A stretch of 64,000 nt of DNA from Verrucomicrobiota bacterium. GTDB taxonomy: Bacteria; Verrucomicrobiota; Verrucomicrobiia; Limisphaerales; UBA11358. Under the pieces are notes generated by a model that was given only the letters and a program-made list of their open reading frames with translations, was not told the origin of the DNA and did no database searches. A program made the position numbers and the translations under genes. The stretch's first letter is position 1, and each line of letters starts with the position of its first letter. Below are positions 7,952 to 29,256 of this stretch, piece by piece. The DNA lies in assembly GCA_049522015.1 (NCBI GenBank), contig JBEKOG010000010.1, forward strand, positions 21,840 through 85,839. The letters run 5' to 3'.

Positions 7952-10900
7952 TCAACGCGATTTTCTGGCGGTGGCAATCGCCACGACCAGCCACAGGGCG
8001 AGGAACCCGGCGAGCGACCAGCCGACCCGGCCCGGCCAGTTGCCCGTACCCGCCTTCACCACCGAAAGCTGGATGGTCATCGGCTTGTGGACTCCGGTCT
8101 GGAGCACCTGGGTGAAGGCGTAACGCAAACCGCGCGTGGGCAGGTTCACATGCAGCGGCTGCACCTTCGCCATCGCCACTTCCTGCGCACGCTGCAGCTT
8201 GACCCATTGCTGTTCGGCCGCGGCGTTGTCGTAAGGCGCCGCCGCCGGTTGTTGGGCCACACCGGAAACGGACAACTGGTCGGCCAACTGTCCTGAATTG
8301 CGCTGCGCAAATTCGTTTTGCGCCATGATCAGGTTGCTGGCCTGTGCCTGGTTCAGGTCTTTTTGAAGCTGTTTCACGTCGGTATCCCGGGATTTGTCCG
8401 CGTAATAAGTGTTCGCGGCCCGGTTGTAATTGGCCATGGCTTCGCGCACGTTGCCCGATTGCAACAACTGTTGCGCCTTGCTGACGTCCTCCTTCGCCTG
8501 CTTTTGGGCGACGGCTTTGCTTTCGCTCTCCATCCGCGAGTATTCGGACAGGGTGAAACTCAACAGCGAAGGTTTGACCGTGGCCACTTCCCGCGACATT
8601 GTCCCGCCAAAACGGTCATAGTCGTAATTGGGCGGCAGGAACAATTCCCAGCGCGCATTCTTCAAGGGCACGTCAAACTGGGGCGAGGCGAAATCAATCT
8701 GCCCGCGCGTTTTCGGGAAGCCGTTGGTGCCGACATAGGTCAGCGTCACCGGTACGGTGGCGTCGTCACCGGACTGTTCCAGCGGCAACAGCAGTTTCCC
8801 GCCATTCTGGCTGGGCCGCACCGGCTGGCCGGCCACAAACGCCGACCAGACCGTCGCTCCCGCCGGCAATTCCACTTCGAGGAACTGCCGTCCGTTGTTG
8901 CGCAAATCCAGCGACATCTCAGTCATGGTCTGGCCATCGTCGGCAACCACCGTCGTGAAACGCGCGCTGTCCACGAGCGCTTGCAACACCTCCGCTTCAT
9001 CGAAGCGCCGGGCCTCGACGACGAGCGAGTAACCGGGGCGCAGATAGCGATACGACAGCACCGGGGTGTCTTCGGCCTGCCCGGCCCATTCCGGAAAATC
9101 TCCCGCGTCCACCCGGCTTAAATCCGTGGCCACGCGCTCGGCGACTTGCAGCGGCGGTTTGGCGACAATGGCCAGCAAACCCGTTTCGCGTTCCACCCCG
9201 GCGGCGGACACGCCGGCCAGCTCAATCCGGTTGGTTCCGGCCTCGCGCGGTTCCTCCCACGTGACCGTCAGCGTGTAAAAGCCGCTGGTCTTGCCCTGCA
9301 ATTCCACCCGCCACTCGTCGCCGTTCTGATCGCGACGGCGGATGTTGGGCCCGGAGATATCCACGTTCTTGAACGCCGCGGGAATTTTCAGGCGCAGTTC
9401 CTTCACCGGGGCGTTGGCGATTTCATAACGCACCTGCGCCCGGCCGCTGATCAGCGTTTCCGAAATCGTGAAGGTGTCCGCCACCTCGGCGCGCAACCAG
9501 GCCTCGACCGTCTCCGTGGTCACGGAAAGTTTCCAATTCGGCGCGGCCTGCGGCCCGGTGGCGATGAATTTGTAGGCCAGCACACCGGCCGCCCCGCGCA
9601 AGGCATTGTAGTCGGGCAGCGAAACCACCGGCACCTCCGCCAGTCCGTCGAACGCCTCGGTCCTGGCCGCGACGCCCGGATCGGTGGAAACGGAAACGAA
9701 ACCCGTCAGCTTCTCCGTATCCAGCGGACACACCCCCTCGACCGCCAGTGACTTTGGCAATTCCTTGAGGCTTCGCGTCAGCTCCAGGCGCAGCGAATAG
9801 TTGCCGCCGGTCCGTTCCTTCAACGCCACTTCCAGCCGGCGCGCATTGCCTTCGGTCCGTTCGGACCATTGCGAAACCCTGTCGCCGATGACCTGTTCGA
9901 CGCGATAGCCGGCCGGCAGGGCCAGCCGGAGCGTGAACACGCCGGCGCGCTTGATGGTGTAGTCCACCACGGCGGAAATGTTCAGTTGATCCGAGCCAAG
10001 GCGGATGTTGTTGCGGACCACCGCCTCGATTTGCGGCTGGATCGTTTCGGCGTTAACGTTCAAATCGAATTCCGGTTTCAGGAAACGGAACACGCTGGCC
10101 AGGCCATCACCGGCCGCCGGCATGACGCGGGCAAATTCCTCCGCGTCCACGCGCTGCAAATCGGACATGGAGGCGACCGACAGGTTCAATTCCTCCGCGC
10201 CGCGCAACGCCACCAGTCCCGTTTCGCGTTTCACCTCCAGCGCGCGCGGGATTTCCACTTTCACCGTTGCCGGCAATGCCTCCAGGATTTTTTCCGTTTC
10301 CACGGTCAGGCGATAGGCGGGGGAAACTCCCTTGAGCAGGTCCGCCACCAGCGTCTGGCCGCCGTTCTCATTCCGGATTTCCCACGTGCGAATCGCCTCG
10401 CCTTCGACGCGCAACAGGCGCTGGCCTGCCGGCAGCCGCACCCGCACCTGGCGCAATTCACCCTGCGTGATTTGATAATCCAGCACGGCGCGCACGTTCA
10501 CCACGCCGCCGCCGAACGTCACCAGTGCCGCATTCTGGCAAAAGACCGTGGCGGCGGTTTCCGCGGCGCGTTTCATGCGCGGTGTCCACAGCAATTCCAC
10601 GGAGCCGCTCGAGCCGATGACGGCCTCGACGCGTGTCCGGTCCTTGACCGTGGCGTGTTTGAAGGAAATGGCGGTGGGGAAATCCACGTCCGCGTCCGGC
10701 TGGTCCAGCGTGAGCACGAACTGGCTGGACAGCGCCGGCGGAATGCCGAACACCAGCCGCCGTTTGGTCACGTCGCCACCAGGTTTGACCAGCAGCCTGA
10801 TTTGCACGGTTGCCGCGCCGCGCCGCCCGAGTTGCACGGCCACGGCGTCGCCGTCGCGAACCAGGCTGGCCTCGCCGGATTTTACGGAGAATTGTTGCAC

Positions 10901-13900
10901 GGCCACGTCCGCGCCGAACAATGGAATTTTCTGGTCCGGTTTTGCCGACGACAGTTGCAACGTGGCGTCGAGTTGCGCCACCCGGTCGTTCACCGACCCG
11001 GCATAGCTGGCAGACAGGATGGAAACGCCGGTGATGGGGGACGGCAAATTGCGGGTGGCAGGTTCCGCCGCCCGGGCGCTCACGAGACCAAGTGCCAGCA
11101 ACAAAACCATGGCCGCCAGGACCGGGGGCGGGGTGGTTTGCGGCGAAGGGTTGCCGCCGTTGCCGTCGGTTGGCGGAGTGCGGCGCGGCCAGTATTTCCA
11201 GACCAATCGCGCGATGACCGCCAGCGCCACCAACGGAAATCCGATGATGAGCACGTCATGCAGCGCGCGCCAGGCAATCAGCAGACTGCACACCGACGCG
11301 AGGATCAGCACCAGCGCGAGGGTGAGTACGAAGGTGTTGGGCTGTTCCCGCCGCCATTGCCAGCCGAAGACGAGCAAACCGAGAACGAACGCACCCGCCT
11401 GCCCGACCATCTGCAACATCTGGAAGGCGTGCAGCGACATGACTTTGGCGCGGATGGAAAGCGGCTCGCCGCCGTCGCGCACGTTCAGGACCTTGGTGAA
11501 CAGGAATGAATTGCCGGTGTGCGGAATCTCGATGCGGATGGAACGAATGCCGGAAACGGTCGGCAACGGAGCGGCAACCGGCTCTTCCTCCGAAACCAGC
11601 ATACCGCCGGCCGAAACCGGGGGAGCAGCCACCGGCAATCCTGTTGTTTCATCGATTCTTTCACCTCCGGCCGGAGCCATGGCATTCGTAATCGTAACTG
11701 TGGCTGTTGTGCCCGCCACCACGCCACCGCCACCACCACCAGCCGCCAACCCCACAATTCTTTGGCGCTGCACCGGCGCGGGCGCAGTTCCAAGAGATTG
11801 CCTTCCCAACACCGCCTCGGTCTGTTTTCTTCGGTCCAGTTCGTCCTGCGGAACCAGTTTGAGAAAACCGCGCTGCTGAATTTCAGCGAATTGTGTGCTG
11901 CTCATCTGCTGTACGCTGCCGTCGGCATACAGCACGGAACAATGGTCATTGTTCATGGGTGAGAACGCCAGCACCGAGTCCGGCTCCAAGGCCGCCTCCG
12001 AACAGCCTCCGCCCACGTAAACAAACCGCTGCTGGCTTTCCGGGTCAATCGTGACCATGTCCGAACCGAGCTCATTTTTCATCTCCTCGAACGACGCCGG
12101 CAACCGGTCGTTGTTGTCCCCGGAGAAAAGCCGCACCGCGATGCCGATTTGCTTGAGGTTGCTGACCGCGTTGATGCGTTGCGCCTTGCGCTTGGCGCTG
12201 GAGAGCGCGGGCAGCAACATTCCGCCCAGCACGGCCAGAATCATAAACACCACAAACACGGTGATGACCCCGTTCCAGCCGCGGCGCACGGCGGAAACCA
12301 CCAGGGCAATCACCAGAAACGCCAGGATCCCCATGACAAAAAGGCCCGCGCCGGCTTCCCGCAGCACCGTGCCATAAAACGCGAGGAACCTTTGCCAGCC
12401 GTCCAGCAGTCCGTAGGTCGTGCCCTGAGCCACGCTCATGCTGCCATCAAAGCTGGATAGCCGTTTGGAAGCCGGCACATAAAGCTCCCACTCGGCATAG
12501 GTGTTCGGCACGTCGGTCCGGGGCGCAGCCAGTTCGAGCCGCCCCGGCCAGCGGGAATTCAACGCCCGGTTGGTCTGGGCGTACACGATGTCCACGGCGA
12601 ACGTCTGGTCACGGTTGATGTTGCGTGGCAACGGCACCAGCACCCAGTCGCCATCGCGCTCCGGTTTGGCGGGCCGGTTGTTGACGTAGCAGCCCCACAA
12701 ATCCGCACCCTTGGGCAGCAGGAACTTTTGGGACTGCTTTTCGTTGTTCTTCACCATGAACGAAGCTTGGGTCAGCATCTCCCCCGCCTCGGTAAGGACG
12801 GAGGTGATTTCCGTCCGGTCCGCCACTGCCTCGAGCACCGGCACCTCCCCGTGCCGCTGCACTTCCAGCGAAAGATCGTATTGGTCGCCGGTGTATTGAT
12901 AGGCCAGCAGGATGTTGCGTGTGATCAAGGCGCGGTCGGCCGCGGCCAGTTCCGCTTCGTCCACGCGATGCAACGAACCGCTGACCGGCTTCGGATTGAG
13001 TTTCAGGCTTGCGGCGGTGGTGACGGCAATCGAACCCGTCTCGCGCTCCACGTCGAGCGTGTGGATGCCGCCGACCGGCAACGTCGCGCTTTTCGGATCG
13101 AACTGGTAGTCGTAGGTGATCACCAAGGTGTAACCGCCCCAGACCTTGTCCTGCAGACCGATGGTCCAAACATCGCCGGACAGTTCCTTGCGCCGGATGT
13201 TCGGCCCGGTGAATTCGACATTCCGGCAGTAGGGCGGCAGCTTCACCTTGAATTCCTGCACGCCTTGGTTGATGAGACCGTAACGAACCGTTGCGCTGCC
13301 GCCCGCCAGTCCGTCGCCGATGGTCACCAGGTTGAAAACATCCGCCACCACGCGCGCCGCCAGCCGTTCGTCCGCCAGCGTCAGCTTCCAATCCGGCTGT
13401 TCAGCCGTGAAGGCCAGCAATTCATCGGAATGATTTTGCAGCCGGTTGACGGGAATTTCACGGAGGCCGCCCAGTTCGGCGGTTTTCAAGCGGATGCCCG
13501 GCGCCGAGACCGCGCCGATTTGCGCGGTCTCCTTGGCCGCGCCGGTGACGCGCAGGGGAGCAACCGTAATCCGGTCCGGAAACGCTTTCAAAGCCTGTTC
13601 CAGTTGCACTTGCAACGTGCGCGAACCGAGGACACGGCTCGCAAAGCTTACCATCAGTTTGCCGGCGGTGACGTTCCAGTCCTCCACCCCTTCGCCGCGC
13701 ACGTCGGCCACGACCATTCCCGGTGGCGGAACGAGGTCGAGCGTGTAAATGCCGGTCTTCTCAATGTTCAGCGCCAGGTTATGCGAAACCAGCAGGCGCG
13801 CTTCTTCCAGCCGCACTCCAACGCGGTCGGCAACGTTGATGACCGGCTCGATGCGCTTGACTTTGAGGGCGAGACTGAAGGGACGCGCGTTGAAACGATA

Positions 13901-14887
13901 CGCCGCGAGTTCGTTGCTGGCGGCATTGACCTGCCGCAGACCGCCGAGTGATTCCACTTCGACGAGCGTGTCCTCGGTTGCCAGCTTAAGCACGCCGGAT
14001 TCGCGGTCAATGTCGAGCGGTTGCGGTGGATTCAACTGCGCCGTCGCGGGCGTGGCTTCGAGGGTTTGCTCGGAAAAGACGGTGAGGTCGTATTCCTGTT
14101 CGACGGGTTTGATGAATTCAACGGTGAGAACCTGCCGGTCGCCGTCGGGTTTGATCTGCCAGTCGCGGATTTGTTCACCCGCCAGCCGCGTCAACGACTG
14201 GCCGGCCGGCAGCGCGAGGGTGAGGCCCGGGGCGTTGCCCTGGACGATTTCGTAATGGAATTTGGTGGTGTATTTGACGACGGTGGGCGTGATCTGCGCT
14301 GTCGCCAGAGTGTCCACGGTGAGCAGCGCCTTGCGCGCCACTTCGGCAACCTTCCCCTGCCAGCGCAAGGCCACGGTCTGGTCCGCGCCCAGAAATCCGC
14401 GCAGGCACGAGACGCCGTTGGTCTGCATGGATTCGAGCAGCGTGCCGTTGAGCAGTTGAATTTCCACCCCCGCACTGGCGGCCTGCGCGGTCACCGACGC
14501 GATGGCGGCGGCGGGGCCGGTGAAGGAAATCTGGTTCCACGGCTCGGCGCGCTGAATTTTGGCGACGAGGTCGAGTTTGAACCGGTACTGGCCCGGCCGG
14601 GTGGCGGTCAGGAGATAGCGGTTGCCGTCGCGGGTGATTTGCAAATCGGACGGCAATTTCACCGGCAACAACGCCACGTCGCCCTCAAACAATTTCACCG
14701 TCGCCTCGCCTTTGCCGGCGACCGCGATGTCCAGGTCCACGGCGAAGCGCGCTTCGTCATCGGACAATTTCGCGTCGTAGCGGACTTCGTTAAGGGACAA
14801 CCCGGCGGGCGGCGCCACGACTGGGCCCGGCAAAGCCGCAATCGCCGGAAACAGACAAACAAACAGGGTGAGGACTTTGTGGTTCAT
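7952..14887 (-). CDS. Giant (2311 aa) multi-domain envelope protein of unknown function; two paralogous halves
   Basis: Uninterrupted 7-kb ORF; GGAG 7 nt upstream of ATG 14887; signal peptide MNHKVLTLFVCLFPAIAALPG; internal TM clusters; C-terminal TM anchor WSLAGFLALWLVVAIATARKSR. Confidence 0.85.
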   Translation of the reverse strand: MNHKVLTLFVCLFPAIAALPGPVVAPPAGLSLNEVRYDAKLSDDEARFAVDLDIAVAGKGEATVKLFEGDVALLPVKLPSDLQITRDGNRYLLTATRPGQYRFKLDLVAKIQRAEPWNQISFTGPAAAIASVTAQAASAGVEIQLLNGTLLESMQTNGVSCLRGFLGADQTVALRWQGKVAEVARKALLTVDTLATAQITPTVVKYTTKFHYEIVQGNAPGLTLALPAGQSLTRLAGEQIRDWQIKPDGDRQVLTVEFIKPVEQEYDLTVFSEQTLEATPATAQLNPPQPLDIDRESGVLKLATEDTLVEVESLGGLRQVNAASNELAAYRFNARPFSLALKVKRIEPVINVADRVGVRLEEARLLVSHNLALNIEKTGIYTLDLVPPPGMVVADVRGEGVEDWNVTAGKLMVSFASRVLGSRTLQVQLEQALKAFPDRITVAPLRVTGAAKETAQIGAVSAPGIRLKTAELGGLREIPVNRLQNHSDELLAFTAEQPDWKLTLADERLAARVVADVFNLVTIGDGLAGGSATVRYGLINQGVQEFKVKLPPYCRNVEFTGPNIRRKELSGDVWTIGLQDKVWGGYTLVITYDYQFDPKSATLPVGGIHTLDVERETGSIAVTTAASLKLNPKPVSGSLHRVDEAELAAADRALITRNILLAYQYTGDQYDLSLEVQRHGEVPVLEAVADRTEITSVLTEAGEMLTQASFMVKNNEKQSQKFLLPKGADLWGCYVNNRPAKPERDGDWVLVPLPRNINRDQTFAVDIVYAQTNRALNSRWPGRLELAAPRTDVPNTYAEWELYVPASKRLSSFDGSMSVAQGTTYGLLDGWQRFLAFYGTVLREAGAGLFVMGILAFLVIALVVSAVRRGWNGVITVFVVFMILAVLGGMLLPALSSAKRKAQRINAVSNLKQIGIAVRLFSGDNNDRLPASFEEMKNELGSDMVTIDPESQQRFVYVGGGCSEAALEPDSVLAFSPMNNDHCSVLYADGSVQQMSSTQFAEIQQRGFLKLVPQDELDRRKQTEAVLGRQSLGTAPAPVQRQRIVGLAAGGGGGGVVAGTTATVTITNAMAPAGGERIDETTGLPVAAPPVSAGGMLVSEEEPVAAPLPTVSGIRSIRIEIPHTGNSFLFTKVLNVRDGGEPLSIRAKVMSLHAFQMLQMVGQAGAFVLGLLVFGWQWRREQPNTFVLTLALVLILASVCSLLIAWRALHDVLIIGFPLVALAVIARLVWKYWPRRTPPTDGNGGNPSPQTTPPPVLAAMVLLLALGLVSARAAEPATRNLPSPITGVSILSASYAGSVNDRVAQLDATLQLSSAKPDQKIPLFGADVAVQQFSVKSGEASLVRDGDAVAVQLGRRGAATVQIRLLVKPGGDVTKRRLVFGIPPALSSQFVLTLDQPDADVDFPTAISFKHATVKDRTRVEAVIGSSGSVELLWTPRMKRAAETAATVFCQNAALVTFGGGVVNVRAVLDYQITQGELRQVRVRLPAGQRLLRVEGEAIRTWEIRNENGGQTLVADLLKGVSPAYRLTVETEKILEALPATVKVEIPRALEVKRETGLVALRGAEELNLSVASMSDLQRVDAEEFARVMPAAGDGLASVFRFLKPEFDLNVNAETIQPQIEAVVRNNIRLGSDQLNISAVVDYTIKRAGVFTLRLALPAGYRVEQVIGDRVSQWSERTEGNARRLEVALKERTGGNYSLRLELTRSLKELPKSLAVEGVCPLDTEKLTGFVSVSTDPGVAARTEAFDGLAEVPVVSLPDYNALRGAAGVLAYKFIATGPQAAPNWKLSVTTETVEAWLRAEVADTFTISETLISGRAQVRYEIANAPVKELRLKIPAAFKNVDISGPNIRRRDQNGDEWRVELQGKTSGFYTLTVTWEEPREAGTNRIELAGVSAAGVERETGLLAIVAKPPLQVAERVATDLSRVDAGDFPEWAGQAEDTPVLSYRYLRPGYSLVVEARRFDEAEVLQALVDSARFTTVVADDGQTMTEMSLDLRNNGRQFLEVELPAGATVWSAFVAGQPVRPSQNGGKLLLPLEQSGDDATVPVTLTYVGTNGFPKTRGQIDFASPQFDVPLKNARWELFLPPNYDYDRFGGTMSREVATVKPSLLSFTLSEYSRMESESKAVAQKQAKEDVSKAQQLLQSGNVREAMANYNRAANTYYADKSRDTDVKQLQKDLNQAQASNLIMAQNEFAQRNSGQLADQLSVSGVAQQPAAAPYDNAAAEQQWVKLQRAQEVAMAKVQPLHVNLPTRGLRYAFTQVLQTGVHKPMTIQLSVVKAGTGNWPGRVGWSLAGFLALWLVVAIATARKSR

Positions 14888-15047
14888 AACAATCTCCATC
14901 TTTGATGGTTGAGCCTTGGTGGAAAAATCGGCTTCATGGAAAATCATTTGGCTTTGTACGCGCGCCGCCGGGGCCGGTTGCAAACAGGGGATTGGTGGGG
15001 CGCGGCGTGCGTGACTTCAGAAAGGAGGCGCGAATTCCGCTCAAAGC

Positions 15048-15062: not shown

Positions 15063-15262
15063 AGGCTGACACCATATTCATGGTTGTTGGACGGGGTATA
15101 CGGCAAAATACTCCCGCGGGGAACGGAAATAACAACACGCGATTTGTCATTCGTGAAAACAATTTATGGCCGGTGAATCCCGCGTGAGGCAGTGCCTTTT
15201 AAGCGGCGCGGTTTTGCCATTGCAAATGGCCCTGTCCGTCCTACGATGCGGAGGGAATTTCT

Positions 15263-15523
15263 ATGGCGACAGGAAAAACTCAGAAACAGTCATCCGGCGG
15301 CTCCGCTCTTGGTTTCGAAGCAACACTCTGGGCTACGGCTGACAAATTGCGCGGTAATCTCGACGCCGCCGAATACAAGCACGTCGTCCTCGGTCTCATA
15401 TTCCTGAAATACATCTCCGACGAATCCCGCACCCTCGCCGCGTTGCGCGATGCGCTGCTGCCGAAGCTGCTGTCGGGCGAGGTGCGCGTGCCCGCCGCAA
15501 AAAAACTTGTCGGTCTTGAATGA
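15263..15523 (+). pseudogene. Type I R-M remnant: HsdM N-terminus (53 aa) fused in frame to an HsdS C-terminus (33 aa)
   Basis: [32 protein letters not shown] is the HsdM_N signature. From codon 54 it reads [24 protein letters not shown], the conserved HsdS C-terminal helix. No methyltransferase catalytic or target-recognition domains. Confidence 0.75.
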
Positions 15524-15540
15524 CTTTTTGAATCAATCAT

Positions 15541-18162
15541 ATGCAAGCTCAACCAAAAACCATTCGTGATATCCTCCACACCGGGGATCAATACATCATT
15601 CCGCTGTTCCAGCGTTATTATTCCTGGACCAAGGAGCATTGGGAACGATTGCGCATGGATGTGTGGGCGCTGATGGAGAACGGCGCAAAGCCGGTTCATT
15701 TCCTCGGGCCGTTGGTCTGCACGCAACCGCCGCATCTTCCCGGTAACGCATCCGCCTACCAACTCATTGATGGACAGCAACGCATCACCACGCTGACGAT
15801 CCTCTTGGCTGCCATCCGGGATGTTGCGCGGTCGCGTAATCTCAACGATTTTGCTGAGGAGGTGACAGAGGACTATCTCCTGTTCAAACGCAAGCAAGGC
15901 AGCGACCGATACAAGGTTCTGCCCCGCCTCGGCGACCGCGAAGTGCTCACGGCCATGATCGAGGGAAATGATATGTCGGGCTTTTCAGACAGCCCCGTTT
16001 TTGAAGCGTGGAAATATTTTCACCGTCACGTCCAGCATTTGTCCCGCAAAGATACGGAACAACAACTGGCCAAGCTGTTGGATGTCATCACCACCCGTTT
16101 GAATTTGGTGGCCGTTCTGATTGATAGCGAGAATCCCTACGAAATTTTTGACAGCCTTAATTCCACCGGCTTGCCCCTTAAAGAGTCTGACCTCATACGC
16201 AACTTTGTTTTCATGGAAATCCCGTTGGCCAAGCAACAGGAGTTTAATGATCAACACTGGAAAGAGTTTGAGAAGGTGTTCGATGCCAACGACACCGAAG
16301 AGGCCATAGAAATGACGCCGTTTTACCGGGATTACCTCATGCGGAACGGCAAGTATTCGAAGGAAGATGCCACGTTCGTGGATTTCAAAAATGCTCATGA
16401 GGATGCCGTGCGGCAGCCGGAAGTGATGATTGGCGAACTGAAGCGTTACGCCAGACTCGACCTCATGCTGCGCCGCCCGGGGGCAGTCAAGGATGCGACG
16501 CTACGTGGCATTCTGCGTCAAGTGGACGGCATGGAAATCACCACGGCCTATCCACTGCTGCTGAATCTGTTGGACCGCAATGACCGGGGACAATTGAGCA
16601 AGGAGGATTTGTGCGGCTGCCTTGAGGACCTCGTCAGTTTTGTTCTTCGCCGCTCCATCTGCGGTGAAACGACGCGCACCTATGGCAAGTGGTTTGTCGA
16701 AGCCATCACCGTAATTCGCGACCATCCGCGCCGCGATCTGCAAACCTACTGGCTCAGCCGACGTTGGCCAGATGATGCTGCGGTCAAGGCCCGTCTGCCC
16801 AGCTTCGAATTGTATCGCCGCGAAAGCACCAAAACTCGTGTAATTCTTGAGGCGCTGGAAGAAAGTTTTGGCCACCGCGAGCGCGTGGATCTCTCCACCC
16901 TGACTATCGAGCACGTCATGCCTCAGACCATTACCAATAACAAGCACGGCAAGGCTTGGAAGGAGATGCTCGGCGCGGATTGGGAAAAAACCCACGAGAC
17001 GCTGCTTCATACCTTGGGCAATCTCACGCTCACCGGCTATAACACCGAGTTGAGCAATTCCGCCTTTGAGATCAAGAAGGTTGAACTCGCCAAGAGCCAT
17101 TTGGACCTCAACTCTTACTTCAATGCTCTGCCCAAATGGGATGCCGAAACGATCCGGGTGCGGACGGCTGTTCTGGCTGAACGCTTGGTTACACTCTGGC
17201 CCCGGCCCGCAACGGAAGTGGTTTATGCCGCTTCCGCCGAAGCGATGCCTGAGCCGGAGGGGTTGAACAACGCCGCCAAGCAGCGTCTCGAATATTGGCG
17301 ACATATGGATGTCCGGTTGGAGGAACGGGGAGTTCCGCGCGATTTCATTGTCGCTGCGCCGGATTCCTCCATTACCGCCAGCATCGGCGACTCCGGAGCC
17401 GCCGAGTTTGAGTTCGGCTTCAACCAGCAGCGTGGTCGGATTTTTGTTTCGTTGAATCTTTCCGATGAGATTGGCGCTTTCATTGCCAAGCACCTGTCCG
17501 AGGCCAAAGTCGCTATCGAACAGGAATTGGGTTATTCGCTTGATTGGGAGATTCGCAACCAGGGCGGCGAGATTTCCATCGCGGACGAAGGGATTCAAAT
17601 TCGCGATGAGAACGATTGGCCGGTTCAACACGATTGGTTTGGGGATCGGCTGGAGGATTTCCAGCGCGTTCTCCAGCCGCGCGTCATTGCGCTTGAAAAA
17701 GAGGCCCTCAAAGACCCCGAGCTTCGCCAGGCTTATGAACAGCGCGGGTTGCTCGTTAGATATTGGCGCGCCTGTTCGGCGGCCTTGGTCGGTTCACGGC
17801 TTTCGTTTCGTGAGAATGCCCCGGATGCTGGCCGCACCCTTTGCCGGTTTAGGCCGCTCGACGACGGCGTGTATTTGGGCGCGCAGTATTATCCCACCAC
17901 TTCCCAGCTCTGTGTTTATTTTGCCGTTTGGAGTTCGGCTGCGCGAAAGCAACGCCAGCTCTTTAAGGAACTCGTCGAAAGCCATATTCCCGAACTAGAA
18001 ACTCAGATCGGTGAAAAACTTCATTGGGAAGACCCGTATTTTTGGGTTTCCATACCGGCAGACATCGGCACGTCGTCGGACTGGCCCCGGCAACATCAGT
18101 GGGTAAAAGAAACGGCAGAGAAGTTTATTGCCACCTTCAAACCGCGTCTTGGCATCGAATAA
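15541..18162 (+). CDS. GmrSD-like DUF262-DUF1524 nuclease with two tandem DUF4268-like C-terminal modules
   Basis: 873 aa; DUF262/ParB-like motif YQLIDGQQRITTLTILLAAI; DUF1524 His-Me finger region TIEHVMPQT...LLHTLGNLTLTGYNTELSN; duplicated ~140-aa C-terminal modules (see findings). Confidence 0.85.
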   Translation: MQAQPKTIRDILHTGDQYIIPLFQRYYSWTKEHWERLRMDVWALMENGAKPVHFLGPLVCTQPPHLPGNASAYQLIDGQQRITTLTILLAAIRDVARSRNLNDFAEEVTEDYLLFKRKQGSDRYKVLPRLGDREVLTAMIEGNDMSGFSDSPVFEAWKYFHRHVQHLSRKDTEQQLAKLLDVITTRLNLVAVLIDSENPYEIFDSLNSTGLPLKESDLIRNFVFMEIPLAKQQEFNDQHWKEFEKVFDANDTEEAIEMTPFYRDYLMRNGKYSKEDATFVDFKNAHEDAVRQPEVMIGELKRYARLDLMLRRPGAVKDATLRGILRQVDGMEITTAYPLLLNLLDRNDRGQLSKEDLCGCLEDLVSFVLRRSICGETTRTYGKWFVEAITVIRDHPRRDLQTYWLSRRWPDDAAVKARLPSFELYRRESTKTRVILEALEESFGHRERVDLSTLTIEHVMPQTITNNKHGKAWKEMLGADWEKTHETLLHTLGNLTLTGYNTELSNSAFEIKKVELAKSHLDLNSYFNALPKWDAETIRVRTAVLAERLVTLWPRPATEVVYAASAEAMPEPEGLNNAAKQRLEYWRHMDVRLEERGVPRDFIVAAPDSSITASIGDSGAAEFEFGFNQQRGRIFVSLNLSDEIGAFIAKHLSEAKVAIEQELGYSLDWEIRNQGGEISIADEGIQIRDENDWPVQHDWFGDRLEDFQRVLQPRVIALEKEALKDPELRQAYEQRGLLVRYWRACSAALVGSRLSFRENAPDAGRTLCRFRPLDDGVYLGAQYYPTTSQLCVYFAVWSSAARKQRQLFKELVESHIPELETQIGEKLHWEDPYFWVSIPADIGTSSDWPRQHQWVKETAEKFIATFKPRLGIE

Positions 18163-18269
18163 TGGTCTTCACCGAATCCATCGTCAAAGATGCGGCGCTG
18201 CTGCCGAAGCTACTGTCGGGCGAGTTGCGCGTGCCCGCCACAATGTGCAAGCTGGAGGCCAGCGTATGA
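18162..18269 (+). pseudogene. 35-codon chimeric stub: HsdR-type N-terminus fused to an HsdS C-terminus
   Basis: MVFTESIVKDAAL + [13 protein letters not shown]; ATG overlaps the upstream TAA (TAATG, 18160-18164); TGA overlaps the darT ATG (ATGA, 18266-18269). Confidence 0.55.
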
Positions 18270-18853
18270 ATCCACGGGTCACAGAACTTCAATGCATCAT
18301 GCCGCTGGAAAACATTCCTTCGGTCCTGAAGCTTGGCATTCTGTCGAACGAGCGGGCGGCGAAAGTTCCGCACTATTCCGTTGCGCTGGAGGTGGTACAG
18401 GAACGGCGCGACCACAAAAACGTGCCCGGTGGTTTGAAACTGCATCAATACGCCAACCTCTATTTTCACGCCCGCAATCCGATGCTCTTTAAAAGAAAGG
18501 ATGCGGCGGCGACGTTATGCGTCTTGCGTGTTTCCACGGAAGTGAGGCATATTGACGGCGTGGTCATCACGGATCGCAATGCATCGAGCGATTATGTGCG
18601 CTTCCTGCATCCGTCACAGGCAGGATTGCTGGACTATGACGCAATTTTTGCGTCAGATTGGCGGCATCCGAACGATCCAATCGCTTACTATCGCCATCGT
18701 TCGCAAAAGTGTGCGGAAGTGCTCGTCCCTCATTGTGTCGAACCAAAACATTTGACCGGAGCATACGTGGTTGATGAGGCTGTCGCTTCCCAATTAACGT
18801 CGGCAGGCTTCGCCATGCCGGTCACAATTGATCCAGTCATGTTTTTCCGTTAA
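18266..18853 (+). CDS. darT: DarT, DUF4433 ssDNA ADP-ribosyltransferase toxin
   Basis: 196 aa from ATG 18266; IMPLENIPSVLKLGILS, ERRDHKNVPGGLKLHQYANLYFHARNPMLF, VITDRNASS, and QKCAEVLV (catalytic Glu context) parallel Thermus DarT as I recall it. The ORF-track start at 18128 runs through the preceding stub. Confidence 0.85.
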   Translation: MNPRVTELQCIMPLENIPSVLKLGILSNERAAKVPHYSVALEVVQERRDHKNVPGGLKLHQYANLYFHARNPMLFKRKDAAATLCVLRVSTEVRHIDGVVITDRNASSDYVRFLHPSQAGLLDYDAIFASDWRHPNDPIAYYRHRSQKCAEVLVPHCVEPKHLTGAYVVDEAVASQLTSAGFAMPVTIDPVMFFR

Positions 18854-18865
18854 CCCCAAACTGCC

Positions 18866-19978
18866 ATGTTTAAAGCACTCTTAGGCGACCTGTTTGCCAC
18901 CCAAGCCCAGACGCGGGTGAACACGGTCAATTGCATCGGCATCATGGGCAAAGGCGTGGCGCAAGAGTTCAAGAAACGTTACCCGGCGATGTTCGAGGAT
19001 TACGCCAGGCGTTGCGAGCGGAAACAGGTGCGTCTCGGCGAGCCGTATCCTTACCGCGATGCGTCGGGAATTCTTATCGTAAATTTTCCAACCAAAGATC
19101 ATTGGCGGTCGCCGTCGCGTCTGGCGGACATCGAGCGAGGGCTGGATTATTTTGTGCAGCATCATGCGGAATGGGGTGTCAAGAGCGTGGCCTTCCCGCC
19201 GCTCGGGTGTGGCAATGGCGGGCTCAGTTGGGAGGAAGTCGGACCGTTGATGTATGGGAAACTGCGGCATTTGGACATCGAGGTCGAGGTTTATGCGCCG
19301 TACGGAACACCCAAGAGCCAATTGGAAGAAGATTTCCTTGGTGGTCCGTCTCAGATGGAACTGGAGGGCAGAGGCCGCAAGCACGAGAAGATGAATCCCG
19401 AATGGGTGGTCTTGATGGAGGTCCTCCGCGAATTGGAGAAGCAGCCTTATGCCAGTCCGGTGGGCCGGACGATTTTTCAAAAGATTTGTTACGTCGTCAC
19501 TGAGATGGGAGTTCAGACCGGCTTCCAGTTTGGCAAGGGTAGCTACGGGCCGTTCGCCGACGAGGTGAAGCTGGCATTGCATGATTTCGCGAACAGGAAC
19601 TGGCTGCATGAGGAGCGACTGGGGAAGATGATCGCATTGCGTGTCGGCCCGCAGTACGAGAAGGAGCGATTAAAATACGAGGAAATCTTGAAGCGGCATG
19701 AGCGAAAGATTTCCAAAACAGTGGATCTGTTCAGCCGCATCAAGAACACGGAACAGGCTGAGGAAGTGCTGACGGTGTTATTTGCAAGCCGCCAGTTGAA
19801 GCAGGCTAAACCGCAACACGAAGTCGCCGAACAGGATCTTTTCGAATACATCCTCAATTGGAAGAAAACATGGCAGACCGACGAGAAGAAACAGGCGGTG
19901 GCCAGTGCTATCCGAAATCTGGTCATGTTAGGCTGGATGCGATTGCAGTTCAGCGAATCCCTTCCTGATGCGGTGTAG
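18866..19978 (+). CDS. darG: DarG, macrodomain antitoxin
   Basis: 370 aa; N-terminal macrodomain loops NCIGIMGKGVAQEF and FPPLGCGNGGLSWEEV; ~200-aa helical C-terminal domain; sits 12 nt after darT. Confidence 0.85.
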   Translation: MFKALLGDLFATQAQTRVNTVNCIGIMGKGVAQEFKKRYPAMFEDYARRCERKQVRLGEPYPYRDASGILIVNFPTKDHWRSPSRLADIERGLDYFVQHHAEWGVKSVAFPPLGCGNGGLSWEEVGPLMYGKLRHLDIEVEVYAPYGTPKSQLEEDFLGGPSQMELEGRGRKHEKMNPEWVVLMEVLRELEKQPYASPVGRTIFQKICYVVTEMGVQTGFQFGKGSYGPFADEVKLALHDFANRNWLHEERLGKMIALRVGPQYEKERLKYEEILKRHERKISKTVDLFSRIKNTEQAEEVLTVLFASRQLKQAKPQHEVAEQDLFEYILNWKKTWQTDEKKQAVASAIRNLVMLGWMRLQFSESLPDAV

Positions 19979-19984
19979 CCGCCA

Positions 19985-20047
19985 ATGCCATCATTCACCG
20001 AATCCATTGTTGAACTTCTGTGCGCGGAATGGGACGGGCAAGGATGA
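19985..20047 (+). pseudogene. 20-codon stub resembling an HsdR N-terminus
   Basis: MPSFTESIVELLCAEWDGQG; its TTCACCGAATCCATTGT repeats 18168-18184 with 16/17 identity. Confidence 0.35.
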
Positions 20048-20081
20048 ATCAGTATTGATTCATGCCCGGCGCCGGTTAAAC

Positions 20082-20714
20082 ATGGCGGTGATGATTCCGG
20101 GTGGGGAAAGTGAATTAATCGCGCGCTGCCGTCGCGGTGAGGCGGCGGCGTGGGACGAATTGTTCGACCGGCATTACGAGGCAACGGCGCGGTTTGTCTT
20201 CCAACTCGGACACGATCTGGCGCGCGAGGACGTGGAGGAAATCTGCCAGGAGGTTTTTCTTTCGGTCATCAAAAATCTCGGCTCGTTCCAGGGCGAAAGC
20301 CGGTTTCAGACCTGGCTCTTTCGCATCGCCGTCAACCGGGCGTGCGATTACCGCGAACACCGCGCGGCCGCCAAACGCGGCGGGGGAGCGACCCCGGTTT
20401 CCCTGGACGCCGGGGATGACGACCGCCCGCCGATTGACCCGCCGGCCCCCACGCCCGGTCCGGACGCCAGCCTGCTGGCCGCCGAACGGCTGGCGCTTGT
20501 CCGGCAGGCGGTAGACCGGTTGGAAGCGCCGTGCCGCGAAATCATTGAGTTGCGTTATTTTGGTGATTTGAGTTACGAGGAAATCGGCGGCACATTGAAA
20601 TTGAACACGAAGACCGTCAGTTCGCGACTAAGCAAATGCCTCGACCGGCTGGAAATCATCGCCCGGACGCTTTTTGCGGAGGAATCGGACAACCCAATTC
20701 CGTCCAACACCTGA
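20082..20714 (+). CDS. ECF-type RNA polymerase sigma-70 family factor
   Basis: Region 2 EICQEVFLSVIKNLGSFQGESRFQTWLFRIAVNRACDY and region 4 EIIELRYFGDLSYEEIGGTLKLNTKTVSSRLSKCLDRL; ATG 20082 preferred over the ORF-track start at 19968. Confidence 0.9.
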   Translation: MAVMIPGGESELIARCRRGEAAAWDELFDRHYEATARFVFQLGHDLAREDVEEICQEVFLSVIKNLGSFQGESRFQTWLFRIAVNRACDYREHRAAAKRGGGATPVSLDAGDDDRPPIDPPAPTPGPDASLLAAERLALVRQAVDRLEAPCREIIELRYFGDLSYEEIGGTLKLNTKTVSSRLSKCLDRLEIIARTLFAEESDNPIPSNT

Positions 20715-20718
20715 CGAC

Positions 20719-21903
20719 ATGGCAGAAGAACGCGACATCGAGAAACAATTGCGCGGCTACGCTGAACAGCGGCGCCGGGAGGCGGGTGCGCCCTTTGAGC
20801 TGCACCTGGCCACGCGCCGGCTGTTGCAGGATGAGGTCCGGCGGACACATAAAAAACCGGCCGAAGCCGCTGAAAGGGCCTCCCTTTTCGCAAGCTGGTG
20901 GTTCCGGATTGCGGCGGGCGCTTGCGTGGTCGTCCTGGCGGCGGCCGTTTTTCTCCCGGCCTTGTCGAGGAGCAAATCCAGAAGCCTGCGGCTCGCACAG
21001 AATTTGGGACTGCGCGAAAAGGCGATCACCGGATCCGCCCAAAACCGACCGTCATCACCGCCCTCGGAAAACGCTCCGGCGCTGGTTGCGTCGGCGCCGC
21101 CAAGCCGGGACGATACGGACAAGGACAGGTTTGCCGCGGCACGGGAAATCGTCATGAACCAGGCTGCGGCAACGCCGTCAACCGTGGTTGCCACAAATGG
21201 CATCACATCCGGCATGGCTGCCGGAGGCTCGACACTGGCATTCGTCCCACATTCCGCGCAGCAGAATTTTTACTTCCGCAATGTGGGCGCGCCAGCCGAC
21301 ATCAGCGTGGCCGTCGGCCGCACGGCGGGGGACCAATTGGCCAAATCGGATTTAAAGCAATCATTGAATGACCGGACAAAAGCGGCCGCCGGAAAAATTC
21401 CGCTGGCCTCGTTTCAAATCGAGCAAACCGGCAACCAGATTCGCATCACGGACGGCGACGGTTCGGTTTACAATGGCAATCTGACGGTCACCAACGCGGA
21501 AACGCCCAACGCAGGAACGTCCATCGCCCGGTCGGATGGAGTTGCCCTGGCGCCCGCGCCCGCAGCGGAAGCAGAAAGGCAATTCGCTCAATCCGCCATC
21601 CAAAATGGAACACCCTCCCTCAACAACGCGGCCTTGGCGCAAAACCAGAACTTCCGGTTCAAAGCTGCCGGCACCAATTTAAGTTTGAATCAACGGATCA
21701 CCATCAGCGGTGAATTCATCGCCGCGACCAACCCGGCGACTTTATGGGGAACCACGCAGAACGGCGGCGGTGGTGGCGGTGGTGCAAATTCTCAAGCGAC
21801 AGCCACCGGCTCGCAGCAGTTGTCGAACGGACGCATCATCGGCAAAGTTGTTTTGGGCAACGGCCAGGAAATCCCGCTCAACGCAACACCCGTGGCGCCC
21901 TGA
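20719..21903 (+). CDS. Putative single-pass anti-sigma factor / membrane protein
   Basis: Starts 5 nt after the sigma gene; short cytoplasmic N-terminus, one TM helix (WWFRIAAGACVVVLAAAVFLPAL), ~300-aa low-complexity ectodomain; assignment by position only. Confidence 0.45.
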   Translation: MAEERDIEKQLRGYAEQRRREAGAPFELHLATRRLLQDEVRRTHKKPAEAAERASLFASWWFRIAAGACVVVLAAAVFLPALSRSKSRSLRLAQNLGLREKAITGSAQNRPSSPPSENAPALVASAPPSRDDTDKDRFAAAREIVMNQAAATPSTVVATNGITSGMAAGGSTLAFVPHSAQQNFYFRNVGAPADISVAVGRTAGDQLAKSDLKQSLNDRTKAAAGKIPLASFQIEQTGNQIRITDGDGSVYNGNLTVTNAETPNAGTSIARSDGVALAPAPAAEAERQFAQSAIQNGTPSLNNAALAQNQNFRFKAAGTNLSLNQRITISGEFIAATNPATLWGTTQNGGGGGGGANSQATATGSQQLSNGRIIGKVVLGNGQEIPLNATPVAP

Positions 21904-28233: not shown

Positions 28234-29256
28234 ATGCCGCTTATCGTCACGCCCCGCCAATTCACCCAGCGTGCCGAGTTGTACCACCAACTCAACCAGC
28301 TCACGGCCGCCGGAATCCCCATCGTTCGCGCATTGGAGCAAATCAAACGCAACCCTCCCGCTCCTTCGTTCCACGAGCCGTTGCAACGCCTGCTCGATGA
28401 ACTCGCCAAGGGCGCGACGCTGGCCGAATCATTGCAGGCGCTCGACTGGCTGCCCGCGTTCGACCTGGCGTTGATCACGGCTGGCGAGCAAAGCGGTCGG
28501 CTCGATACCTGTTTCCGCATGCTCGCCGATTACTACAACGACCGCGCCCGCGTCATCAAGCAGGTGATAGCCCAACTTATTTATCCCGTCGGATTGATTC
28601 ATTTTGCCGCCTTCATTTTTTTAATTGTGCTTCCGTTCGCCGGATCACAGTTCAATGCCAGCCTGCCCCTGCTTTGCGCCAAAGCTGCGCTCATTCTCTC
28701 CCCGTTTTATGGCGCCGTCGCCCTGATGATTTACGCCTCGCAAAGCAAACACGGCGAAAACTGGCGTGCAGTAATGGAATCCCTGTTGCGACCGGTTCCA
28801 ATCCTCGGCACGGCACGGCATTATCTCGCCCTGTCCCGGCTGGCAGCGGCGCTTGAAGCGCTCATCAGCGCCGGGGTCAACATCTTTGAGGCTTGGGACC
28901 TGGCTGCCACTGCCAGCGGCTCGCCGGCCTTGCGTCGGGCCGTCGCCGCCTGGAAATCGCGCGTGGTTGCCGGCCAAATGCCGTCCGAGGCCGTGCGCCT
29001 CTGCCCGCTGTTCCCGGGAACCTTCGCCAACCTTTACGCCAGCGGCGAGGTCAGCGGCAAACTGGATGATTCGCTCCGCCAGCTAAACCGGATCTACAAT
29101 GAGGACGGCACGCGCAAGCTGAACGCCTTCGCCACTTGGATGCCGCGGCTCGTTTATATGCTGGTCGCGTTGATGATCGCTTACAAAGTCATCCAGTTCT
29201 GGGCTGGCCTCTATGGTCCACACAGCGACCTTTCCAATGTTCTGAAAGGATTTTAA
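28234..29256 (+). CDS. Type II secretion / type IV pilus platform protein, GspF/PilC family (orphan)
   Basis: Two T2SSF repeats, each ending in the (A/I)GE.SG.LD motif (LITAGEQSGRLDTCFRMLADYY and LYASGEVSGKLDDSLRQLNRIY); 3 TM segments. Confidence 0.75.
   Translation: MPLIVTPRQFTQRAELYHQLNQLTAAGIPIVRALEQIKRNPPAPSFHEPLQRLLDELAKGATLAESLQALDWLPAFDLALITAGEQSGRLDTCFRMLADYYNDRARVIKQVIAQLIYPVGLIHFAAFIFLIVLPFAGSQFNASLPLLCAKAALILSPFYGAVALMIYASQSKHGENWRAVMESLLRPVPILGTARHYLALSRLAAALEALISAGVNIFEAWDLAATASGSPALRRAVAAWKSRVVAGQMPSEAVRLCPLFPGTFANLYASGEVSGKLDDSLRQLNRIYNEDGTRKLNAFATWMPRLVYMLVALMIAYKVIQFWAGLYGPHSDLSNVLKGF

Follow-up and report, generated by a model that had tools for sequence, protein, structure and literature searches.

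A pilin-like module without a prepilin processing site inside a giant envelope protein of Verrucomicrobiota, and its sister module in a neighbouring putative anti-sigma factor

How does a module of the pseudopilin family come to lie some 900 residues inside a giant envelope protein, and what might it do there? The question is raised by a minus-strand gene in a stretch of 64,000 nucleotides from a Verrucomicrobiota bacterium (GenBank assembly GCA_049522015.1, contig JBEKOG010000010.1, forward-strand positions 21,840 to 85,839); we refer to this whole stretch as the window, and coordinates given without a contig or locus label are positions in it. The answer proposed here is that a small free-standing prepilin was captured into a giant inner-membrane protein, as its residues ~903-1040, where it probably serves docking rather than the building of a fibre. 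We assign a probability of roughly 0.55 to the whole explanation, in which a captured, uncleaved anchor with a periplasmic docking head belongs to a gene driven by an extracytoplasmic function (ECF) sigma factor, and in which the putative anti-sigma factor encoded beside that sigma factor is the head's likeliest partner. The parts of the locus on which the argument turns are as follows.

7952-14887, minus strand: giant envelope protein gene, two paralogous halves around a central membrane region
12284-12346, minus strand: transmembrane helix, residues 880-900, closing half I and predicted to run from periplasm to cytoplasm (hydropathy; helix 2-32 of the AlphaFold2 model)
12266-12283, minus strand: predicted cytoplasmic loop RRGWNG, residues 901-906, at the position of a prepilin leader (GspG/geopilin alignments, hhalign)
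12116-12277, minus strand: pilin-type alpha1 helix, residues ~903-956 (54-residue model helix; in-register GspG match)
11864-12115, minus strand: compact globular head of the module, residues ~957-1040 (identity to the free-standing prepilin P0384; hhalign; predicted local distance difference test score, pLDDT, 78-87 in the model)

A first-pass annotation, made from the letters of the DNA, had likened this segment to the helix and the C-terminal DGS motif of the type II pseudopilin-like (H-X9-DG, DUF1559) proteins, and had allowed that the likeness might be only that of one membrane helix to another. The residues that it quoted are real: ILAVLGGMLLPAL corresponds to residues 915-927 (12203-12241, minus strand) and CSVLYADGSVQQM to residues 1015-1027 (11903-11941, minus strand) of one open reading frame (ORF) of 2,343 codons. 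Curated models stayed below their cut-offs, with E 8.8e-5 and 22.5 bits (cut-off 88.85) for the GspG model TIGR01710 on the module segment and E 0.26 and 11.7 bits (cut-off 23.3) for DUF1559 (PF07596) on the giant protein, and neither the N_methyl models (PF07963, TIGR02532) nor TIGR04294 matched the giant protein. Since these scans of protein and segment were sub-threshold, custom profiles were needed, and their matches were strongly significant. When the modules of 21 orthologues were scanned singly (E <= 0.01), the GspG model matched 15, DUF1559 matched 10 (best 4.3e-8) and TIGR04294 matched 5.

A hidden Markov model (HMM) was built from 120 orthologue modules; in a search of the six-frame ORFs of the whole genome it matched ~45 prepilin-type ORFs at E values from 1e-9 to 7.5e-24. 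Most of these start (G or A)FTLIELLVV, and many align with the module both at the helix and at the C-terminal ADGSV strand, so that the comparison with free-standing genes of the same genome, which had been called for, comes out in favour of kinship. A profile of 21 orthologue modules found PulG/GspG (5wda, E 2.8e-8) in the PDB, together with geopilins and PilA, aligned from mature residue 2. By hhalign the module matches 11 free-standing prepilin-type proteins with 99.93% probability (E 1.1e-35, 137 columns) in an alignment that runs from the loop to past ADGSVQQ; the blocks of those prepilins are INCVNNLKQ, WEGDNNDxYP, MSNELxTPKILxCP and ADGSVQQ, and three insertions and an invariant Cys pair that they contain are missing from the module of the giant protein. 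A free-standing prepilin of the representative library, P0384, has 170 residues, a canonical KRG/FTLVELLVV site and a TIGR02532 match that passes the curated cut-off; in an ungapped stretch of 119 residues, its head and that of the giant protein are 49% identical (E 2e-37). Curated models alone would have left the nature of the resemblance open; these four independent lines of profile and identity evidence agree in placing it far above chance, and we regard the homology, and with it the descent of the module from a prepilin, as decisively supported by the sequences. As side observations on the free-standing set, many canonical prepilin-type ORFs of this genome have Ala, not Gly, before FTLIELLVV (for example C34:28241-29230, C19:67047-67394 and C49:783-1910), and a few have degenerate motifs, such as GFTLVGLII on contig C74 and ALTLTEVLVV on contig C40.

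The alpha1 helix, the N-terminal half of which is an internal transmembrane segment, has the motifs MLLPAL, AKRKAQRI and NLKQIG, and the head contains an MKNEL...DP block, beta strands and the ADGSV strand (11912-11926). In an AlphaFold2 model of residues 870-1050 (pLDDT 78.8) a transmembrane helix leads through a turn to a 54-residue helix, after which come two short helices, three strands and a last helix at the C-terminus; the long helix and small head fit pilin topology, as far as that part of the proposed structural check goes. The DGS motif is present as first read, but its spacing is H-X6-DG (H1014-X6-D1021-G1022) and not H-X9-DG; the His of the family aligns with an Asn here, and orthologues retain DG(S/H)V but differ at the His. 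By descent, then, we would place the module in the H-X9-DG / DUF1559-type prepilin superfamily, to which it does not belong by curated thresholds or by the H-X9-DG motif itself.

What distinguishes the module from a prepilin is the loss of the processing site. The prepilin-peptidase site G/FTLIE had been reported as absent and the helix as internal, and both observations hold: the helix lies about 900 residues into the protein, directly after the transmembrane helix 880-900 and the loop RRGWNG, and all alignments agree on a register that puts W903 at -1, N904 at +1 and T908 at the position of Glu5. This Glu is retained in distant orthologues, namely L007 and L010 (...GVIELLVVV, with Ala at -1 and Glu at +5) and L017 (...TGIEILVV), which marks the degenerate site as a vestige and not as a coincidence. 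Since the module stands behind 900 residues and a transmembrane helix, with Trp at -1 and Thr in place of Glu5, it should be neither processed nor polymerised. The loop R-R-G-W is nearly invariant among the giant proteins (R, R/G, W), and the sister modules of the putative anti-sigma factors described below have RQRW or RRQW without a Gly; we read the loop Gly as a probable hairpin-turn residue and the Trp as a probable interfacial anchor. One could suppose that prepilin peptidase still cuts this conserved loop, with the Gly of either RRG or WNG at -1, to yield half I and a pilin-headed half II. A near-invariant basic-basic-Gly loop exactly at the end of a prepilin leader, the presence of a prepilin peptidase gene in the genome and the in-register Ala and Glu of L007 and L010 speak for such a cut, but we hold it to be very improbable: the -1 residue is Trp in this protein, the use of either Gly as -1 would put the helix one or two residues out of register, the sister modules have no Gly, and a tight hairpin with an interfacial Trp fits the loop better than does a cleavage site.

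The remainder of the giant protein places the module between two large ectodomains, for which the following features are needed.

12359-14800, minus strand: ectodomain I, residues 62-875, predicted periplasmic beta-sandwich array (AlphaFold2, all strands)
11624-11863, minus strand: variable Gly/Ala/Pro-rich linker, residues 1041-1120 (7-20% identity among orthologues)
11060-11419, minus strand: three transmembrane helices (1189-1265), basic Pro-rich loop and signal-peptide-like helix 1285-1308 that starts half II (hydropathy)
8669-11059, minus strand: ectodomain of half II, an all-beta array without annotation

The minus-strand ORF (7952-14983) is open from a TTG at 14983; conservation among relatives begins near residue 41, and the likely start is therefore Met33 (14887), which is followed by a signal-peptide-like helix. 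A hydropathy scan gives the order of elements as a signal-like helix (36-61), a region of ~810 residues, the transmembrane helix 880-900, the loop RRGWNG, the pilin-like helix, a soluble stretch, the three transmembrane helices 1189-1265, the basic Pro-rich loop, a second signal-like helix (1285-1308), a second region of ~800 residues and a C-terminal transmembrane helix (2322-2341). Half I and half II are paralogues, with 29% identity over 793 residues (E 1e-95). The basic residues are found on every other loop, as the positive-inside rule would have it, and from this we infer that both ectodomains lie in the periplasm together with the pilin-like head, and that the helix of the module is oriented with its N-terminus in and its C-terminus out, as in a prepilin. 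On this topology alpha1 would form the second arm of a transmembrane hairpin that returns the chain to the periplasm, and the compact head, lying between two beta-sandwich ectodomains, would probably act there as a piece for the docking of another protein. Ectodomain I is modelled by AlphaFold2 as all beta (mean pLDDT 79.8), and its best Foldseek matches in the PDB are to ribophorin I / Ost1 of the eukaryotic oligosaccharyltransferase (E 2e-8, TM-scores 0.17-0.31), followed by the legs of integrin alpha; because the local E values are good but the TM-scores low, the reading of the ectodomain is limited to tandem beta-sandwiches on a membrane anchor. Sequence searches with the ectodomains in Pfam and the PDB gave no match, and a homologue search with half II recovered fragments of the same family and no named single-half relatives.

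The joining of module and giant protein is conserved. More than 260 database proteins of Verrucomicrobiota, with lengths of 2,260-2,680 residues, have the module at the same place, and identity to orthologues is 55-80% over the whole length. The module is as conserved as the rest of the protein, with 58-76% identity in the head. Within the class the giant protein is widespread but patchy (12 of the 301 genomes sampled), and the architecture of two halves is kept in all eight genomes that were fetched (42-62% identity), with the version in G211 split into three adjacent ORFs. Full-length conservation, more than 260 homologues and the paralogy of the halves argue that the fusion is not an assembly artefact. 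The capture of a domain, which had been suggested from the window, is supported by the existence of a canonical free-standing prepilin having a 49% identical head and by the Glu5 of some orthologues. The annotation pipeline of the Joint Genome Institute calls many of the orthologues "pseudopilin PulG" or "H-X9-DG protein", a label that covers only ~6% of these 2,300-residue proteins, and the present analysis corrects these automatic public names. As a separate observation, a plus-strand ORF of ~390 codons at 18292-19467 of contig C10, 2.4-3.5 kb before the window, encodes several transmembrane helices and, after them, a pilin-like module that has no prepilin motif (HMM E 1e-9, in the helix region and the C-terminal strand), and a relative, P0218, joins DUF4190 to such a module; capture of the pilin fold behind other membrane anchors thus seems to be recurrent.

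Could the module nevertheless serve a pilus? The first-pass annotation had proposed that it tethers the ectodomain to a pilus or to an apparatus like the type II secretion system (T2SS), and had drawn attention to an "orphan" GspF-like gene at 28234. We consider it unlikely that the giant protein is held at a type IV filament or a T2SS machine by its uncleaved module, be it that the module contacts the assembly platform or that it stays in the membrane as a base subunit. The genome does have a full set of filament machinery, on other contigs (a prepilin peptidase, at least seven full-length GspE/PilB ATPases and 4-5 secretins), in addition to the ~45 prepilin-type proteins, and alpha1 keeps the core motifs of the family, as some orthologues keep Glu5. 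In the lineage of this genome, however, Glu5 has become Thr, a transmembrane helix on the N-terminus of alpha1 would be expected to obstruct packing into a filament core, and no pilus or secretion gene occurs in the conserved neighbourhood at the 18 loci compared. The GspF-like gene is one of eight ORFs of the T2SSF type in the genome and therefore not an orphan; 13 kb with unrelated genes separate it from the giant gene, and no connection between the two is apparent. The module has none of the defining marks of a fibre subunit, i.e., the N-terminal class III signal, Glu5 and linkage to machinery, and is pilin-like only in the way that it is inserted in the membrane. The GspF-like gene itself (28234-29256, plus strand) is short, and a close paralogue (38205-39098 on contig C5) adjoins a GspE-type ATPase gene and another T2SSF gene; the gene in the window looks like that of a Tad-type platform protein and not of a T2SS GspF.

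If no pilus genes accompany the giant gene, what does? In the window its neighbours are a GmrSD/DarTG defence islet, an ECF sigma factor gene, the gene of a 409-residue partner, holB and an O-antigen-ligase-like gene. Ten loci were compared, and the only neighbour that they have in common with the present locus is the ECF sigma gene with its partner, divergent to the giant gene.

19968-20714, plus strand: ECF sigma factor gene, conserved divergent neighbour (Sigma70_r2, Sigma70_ECF and r4 domains)
20719-21903, plus strand: putative anti-sigma factor gene (role judged from position and topology)
20926-20985, plus strand: transmembrane helix VFLPALSRSKSRS of the putative anti-sigma factor, remnant of a pilin-like module (weak, helix-only HMM match; L004 alignment)

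The copies of this sigma factor encoded next to the giant gene are 64-99% identical to it in L001-L007, G159 and G195 and 56-60% identical in G090. The sigma/anti-sigma pair is adjacent at 11 of the 18 loci, and at six of these the anti-sigma factor carries the full compact module. The pair directly abuts the giant gene in L003-L006 and G195 (gap 100-330 bp) and is nearby in L007, G159 and G090; in the present genome, L001 and L002, islets of 4-5 kb with differing content lie between the giant gene and the sigma gene. The defence islet of the window (15115-19967) lies exactly between the promoter-like motif of the giant gene, described below, and the ECF sigma gene. At the corresponding site L001:3347-7257 shares part of the islet, L002:2141-7229 has unrelated content of similar size and L003:7067-7295 has none, so that the intergenic site looks like a hot spot for insertions. 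In L004 (14418-19013), as in L005-L007, genes for a MoxR-type AAA ATPase, a DUF58 protein and a transglutaminase/DUF4129 protein follow the giant gene on the same strand, which is not so in the present genome; they hint at an envelope complex of the Bat/MoxR type.

The partner gene overlaps or abuts the sigma gene and its product has one transmembrane helix. In L004-L007, G159 and G195 the partner has 436-546 residues, with a cytoplasmic N-terminus, the single transmembrane helix and a periplasmic part as its predicted layout. These six partners carry the whole compact module, with the pilin helix as their sole transmembrane segment, and match the HMM of the giant module at E 1e-37 to 1e-47 over positions 10-149. 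The module of the partner is 36-46% identical to that of the giant protein in the same genome and has the same compact head without Cys; the free-standing prepilin-type ORFs of the present genome are less close (best E 7.5e-24, in pieces), and P0384 shares the compact head. In the present genome and in L001-L003 the partner keeps the helix remnant only, and the head is replaced by a low-complexity stretch rich in Pro, Ser and Ala. The C-terminal domain of the anti-sigma factor has its own conserved block, which includes DGSVY.

Such sister modules are abundant. In a representative set of 1.84 billion proteins the module profile finds 131 clusters at E <= 1e-30, and the top 144 clusters comprise ~72 of the anti-sigma type, ~46 of the giant type and, for the remainder, fragments and a few free-standing prepilins. 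Within the sample of 301 genomes a second copy of the module occurs only where the giant protein does (2 of 12 genomes, as against 0 of 289), an association that is only suggestive because the genomes are kin. A maximum-likelihood tree groups the anti-sigma modules in a single clade (83%) among the compact modules. A scan of metagenomes with a generic helix pattern yielded mostly free-standing prepilins and one further fragment of a giant protein, and no new anti-sigma pairs.

A link between the sigma factor and the giant gene is suggested by a conserved sequence upstream of the latter.

15090-15114, minus strand: ECF-type promoter-like motif, GGAGTATTTT-N11-CCCGTC, ~200 nt before Met33 (conserved boxes; candidate promoter)

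The pattern GGAG[CT]ATTT-N11-YCCGTC is found upstream of the giant gene, on the same strand, at 12 of the 18 loci; the boxes are fixed and the spacer varies, and at three of the 12 loci no sigma gene is adjacent. The strict form of the motif occurs once in the 5.1-Mb genome. ECF promoters in general have a GGAAC-like box at -35, a spacer of 16-17 nt and CGTC at -10, and the motif of the giant gene might be said to resemble this layout.

The scheme that we favour brings these observations together. The giant gene would probably be transcribed from an ECF-type promoter by the neighbouring ECF sigma factor, and the likeliest partner of its docking head would be the sister module that related genomes have in the anti-sigma factor, as its transmembrane helix and periplasmic domain. 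The anti-sigma factor might in this way sense the presence or state of the giant protein, in a feedback of product on regulator like that of FecA and FecR. Because the head of the anti-sigma factor has been lost in the present genome, the coupling would have to proceed here through the helix alone, or has been lost as well.

Several results weigh against this scheme. The anti-sigma factors of the present genome and of L001-L003 are headless, yet the module of the giant protein stays conserved; seven of the 18 loci have no sigma gene within reach; and the anti-sigma factor of G090 has no match to the module. It follows from the headless anti-sigma factors and from the loci without a sigma gene that the head needs a role beyond pairing with an anti-sigma factor, which might perhaps consist of contacts inside the giant protein itself. 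The designation of the partner as an anti-sigma factor is not backed by any profile match, and no copy of the promoter-like motif was found upstream of the sigma gene. Deep nodes of the module tree have support of 26-51%, for which reason we draw no direction of transfer from it. A Foldseek search of the PDB with the module model returned no pilin (best E 0.3), which is the part of the structural check that did not bear out the expected fold, so that the fold is backed by sequence and secondary structure only. The proposed contact between the two modules, finally, is surmised from their being paralogous.

Some of the same results would be expected if the module were an evolutionary relic with a purely structural part to play, that of a transmembrane hairpin and spacer between fused halves, with no specific partner. 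Its invariant residues (MLLPAL, NLKQ, P, ADGxV) are core motifs of the whole prepilin-type family and may do no more than maintain the fold, and the giant protein retains the module even at loci whose anti-sigma factor is headless or that lack an adjacent sigma gene. A mere spacer, on the other hand, would not be expected to have a head conserved to the degree of the ectodomains (58-76%) next to a linker that varies freely (7-20%), and the neighbouring anti-sigma factor represents a second recruitment of this compact module, which is abundant in such proteins. We therefore regard the relic as a possible but doubtful alternative to a docking module.

A more specific form of the docking scheme is that the giant protein and the anti-sigma factor recognise each other through their paralogous, uncleaved modules, helix to helix in the membrane and head to head in the periplasm, with a Fec-like feedback in which the pseudopilin fold has been reused for signalling or dimerisation; this we put forward tentatively, as possible rather than probable. 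Precedents exist in which pilin helices embedded in the membrane signal to regulators, namely PilA to PilS (PMC6058289), PilA of Caulobacter (PMC7196804), minor pilins to FimS (PMC5979040) and a truncated PilA to MucA (PMC3684759).

The significance of the locus is related to the size of the family from which the module comes. The module profile reaches 41,716 representative clusters at E <= 1e-10, and the H-X9-DG / DUF1559 prepilin-type proteins are among the largest families of Verrucomicrobiota and Planctomycetota, without an established function; a literature search on DUF1559 found passing mentions only. Searches for the architecture of the giant protein found no paper on it, and those for a pseudopilin together with an anti-sigma factor found nothing relevant. 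What is new here is that the conserved neighbour of such a protein is a divergent pair of ECF sigma factor and putative anti-sigma factor, and not pilus genes, that in relatives the latter carries a sister module of the same compact subfamily, of which the present genome keeps only the helix remnant, and that an ECF-type motif, single in this genome, precedes the giant gene. A version of the pilin fold that can be neither processed nor polymerised illustrates the use of this fold outside fibres. Its fixation in a giant protein and duplication into the sensor position of an anti-sigma factor mean that binding could be tested in a defined system of two genes and a predicted promoter. Should mutual recognition of the modules prove true, the very large H-X9-DG / DUF1559 pilin-like family of Planctomycetes-Verrucomicrobia-Chlamydiae (PVC) bacteria would for the first time have a function open to experiment.

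Among known systems, GspG/PulG and the type IV pilins share with the module a helix of ~54 residues with a hydrophobic N-terminal half, in register from mature GspG residue 2 to ~65, followed by a small beta-sheet head in the same predicted orientation, N-terminus in and C-terminus out. They differ in that the module is internal, 900 residues into the protein and behind a transmembrane helix, with Trp at -1, Thr at 5 and no pilus genes nearby, and in that it probably never leaves the membrane. With the H-X9-DG / DUF1559 proteins (PF07596, TIGR04294) of Verrucomicrobiota and Planctomycetota it has in common the series LLPAL-AKxKAQRI-NNLKQIG-DNxDxxP, MxNEL...P.D and ADGSVQQ, whereas its head is compact, without the three insertions and the Cys pair, has the spacing H-X6-DG and is preceded by no cleavage/methylation motif. 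The modular type IV pilins of Streptococcus sanguinis likewise join a pilin module to other domains in one polypeptide; there the N-terminal pilin module is reportedly processed and polymerised and the extra module grafted C-terminally, whereas the giant protein has large domains on both sides of its module. The FecA-FecR-FecI system is similar in that a pair of ECF sigma factor and membrane anti-sigma factor adjoins its probable target gene, a likeness drawn here from gene order and the promoter-like motif only, and it differs in that both presumed partners of the present system carry the same pilin-derived module.

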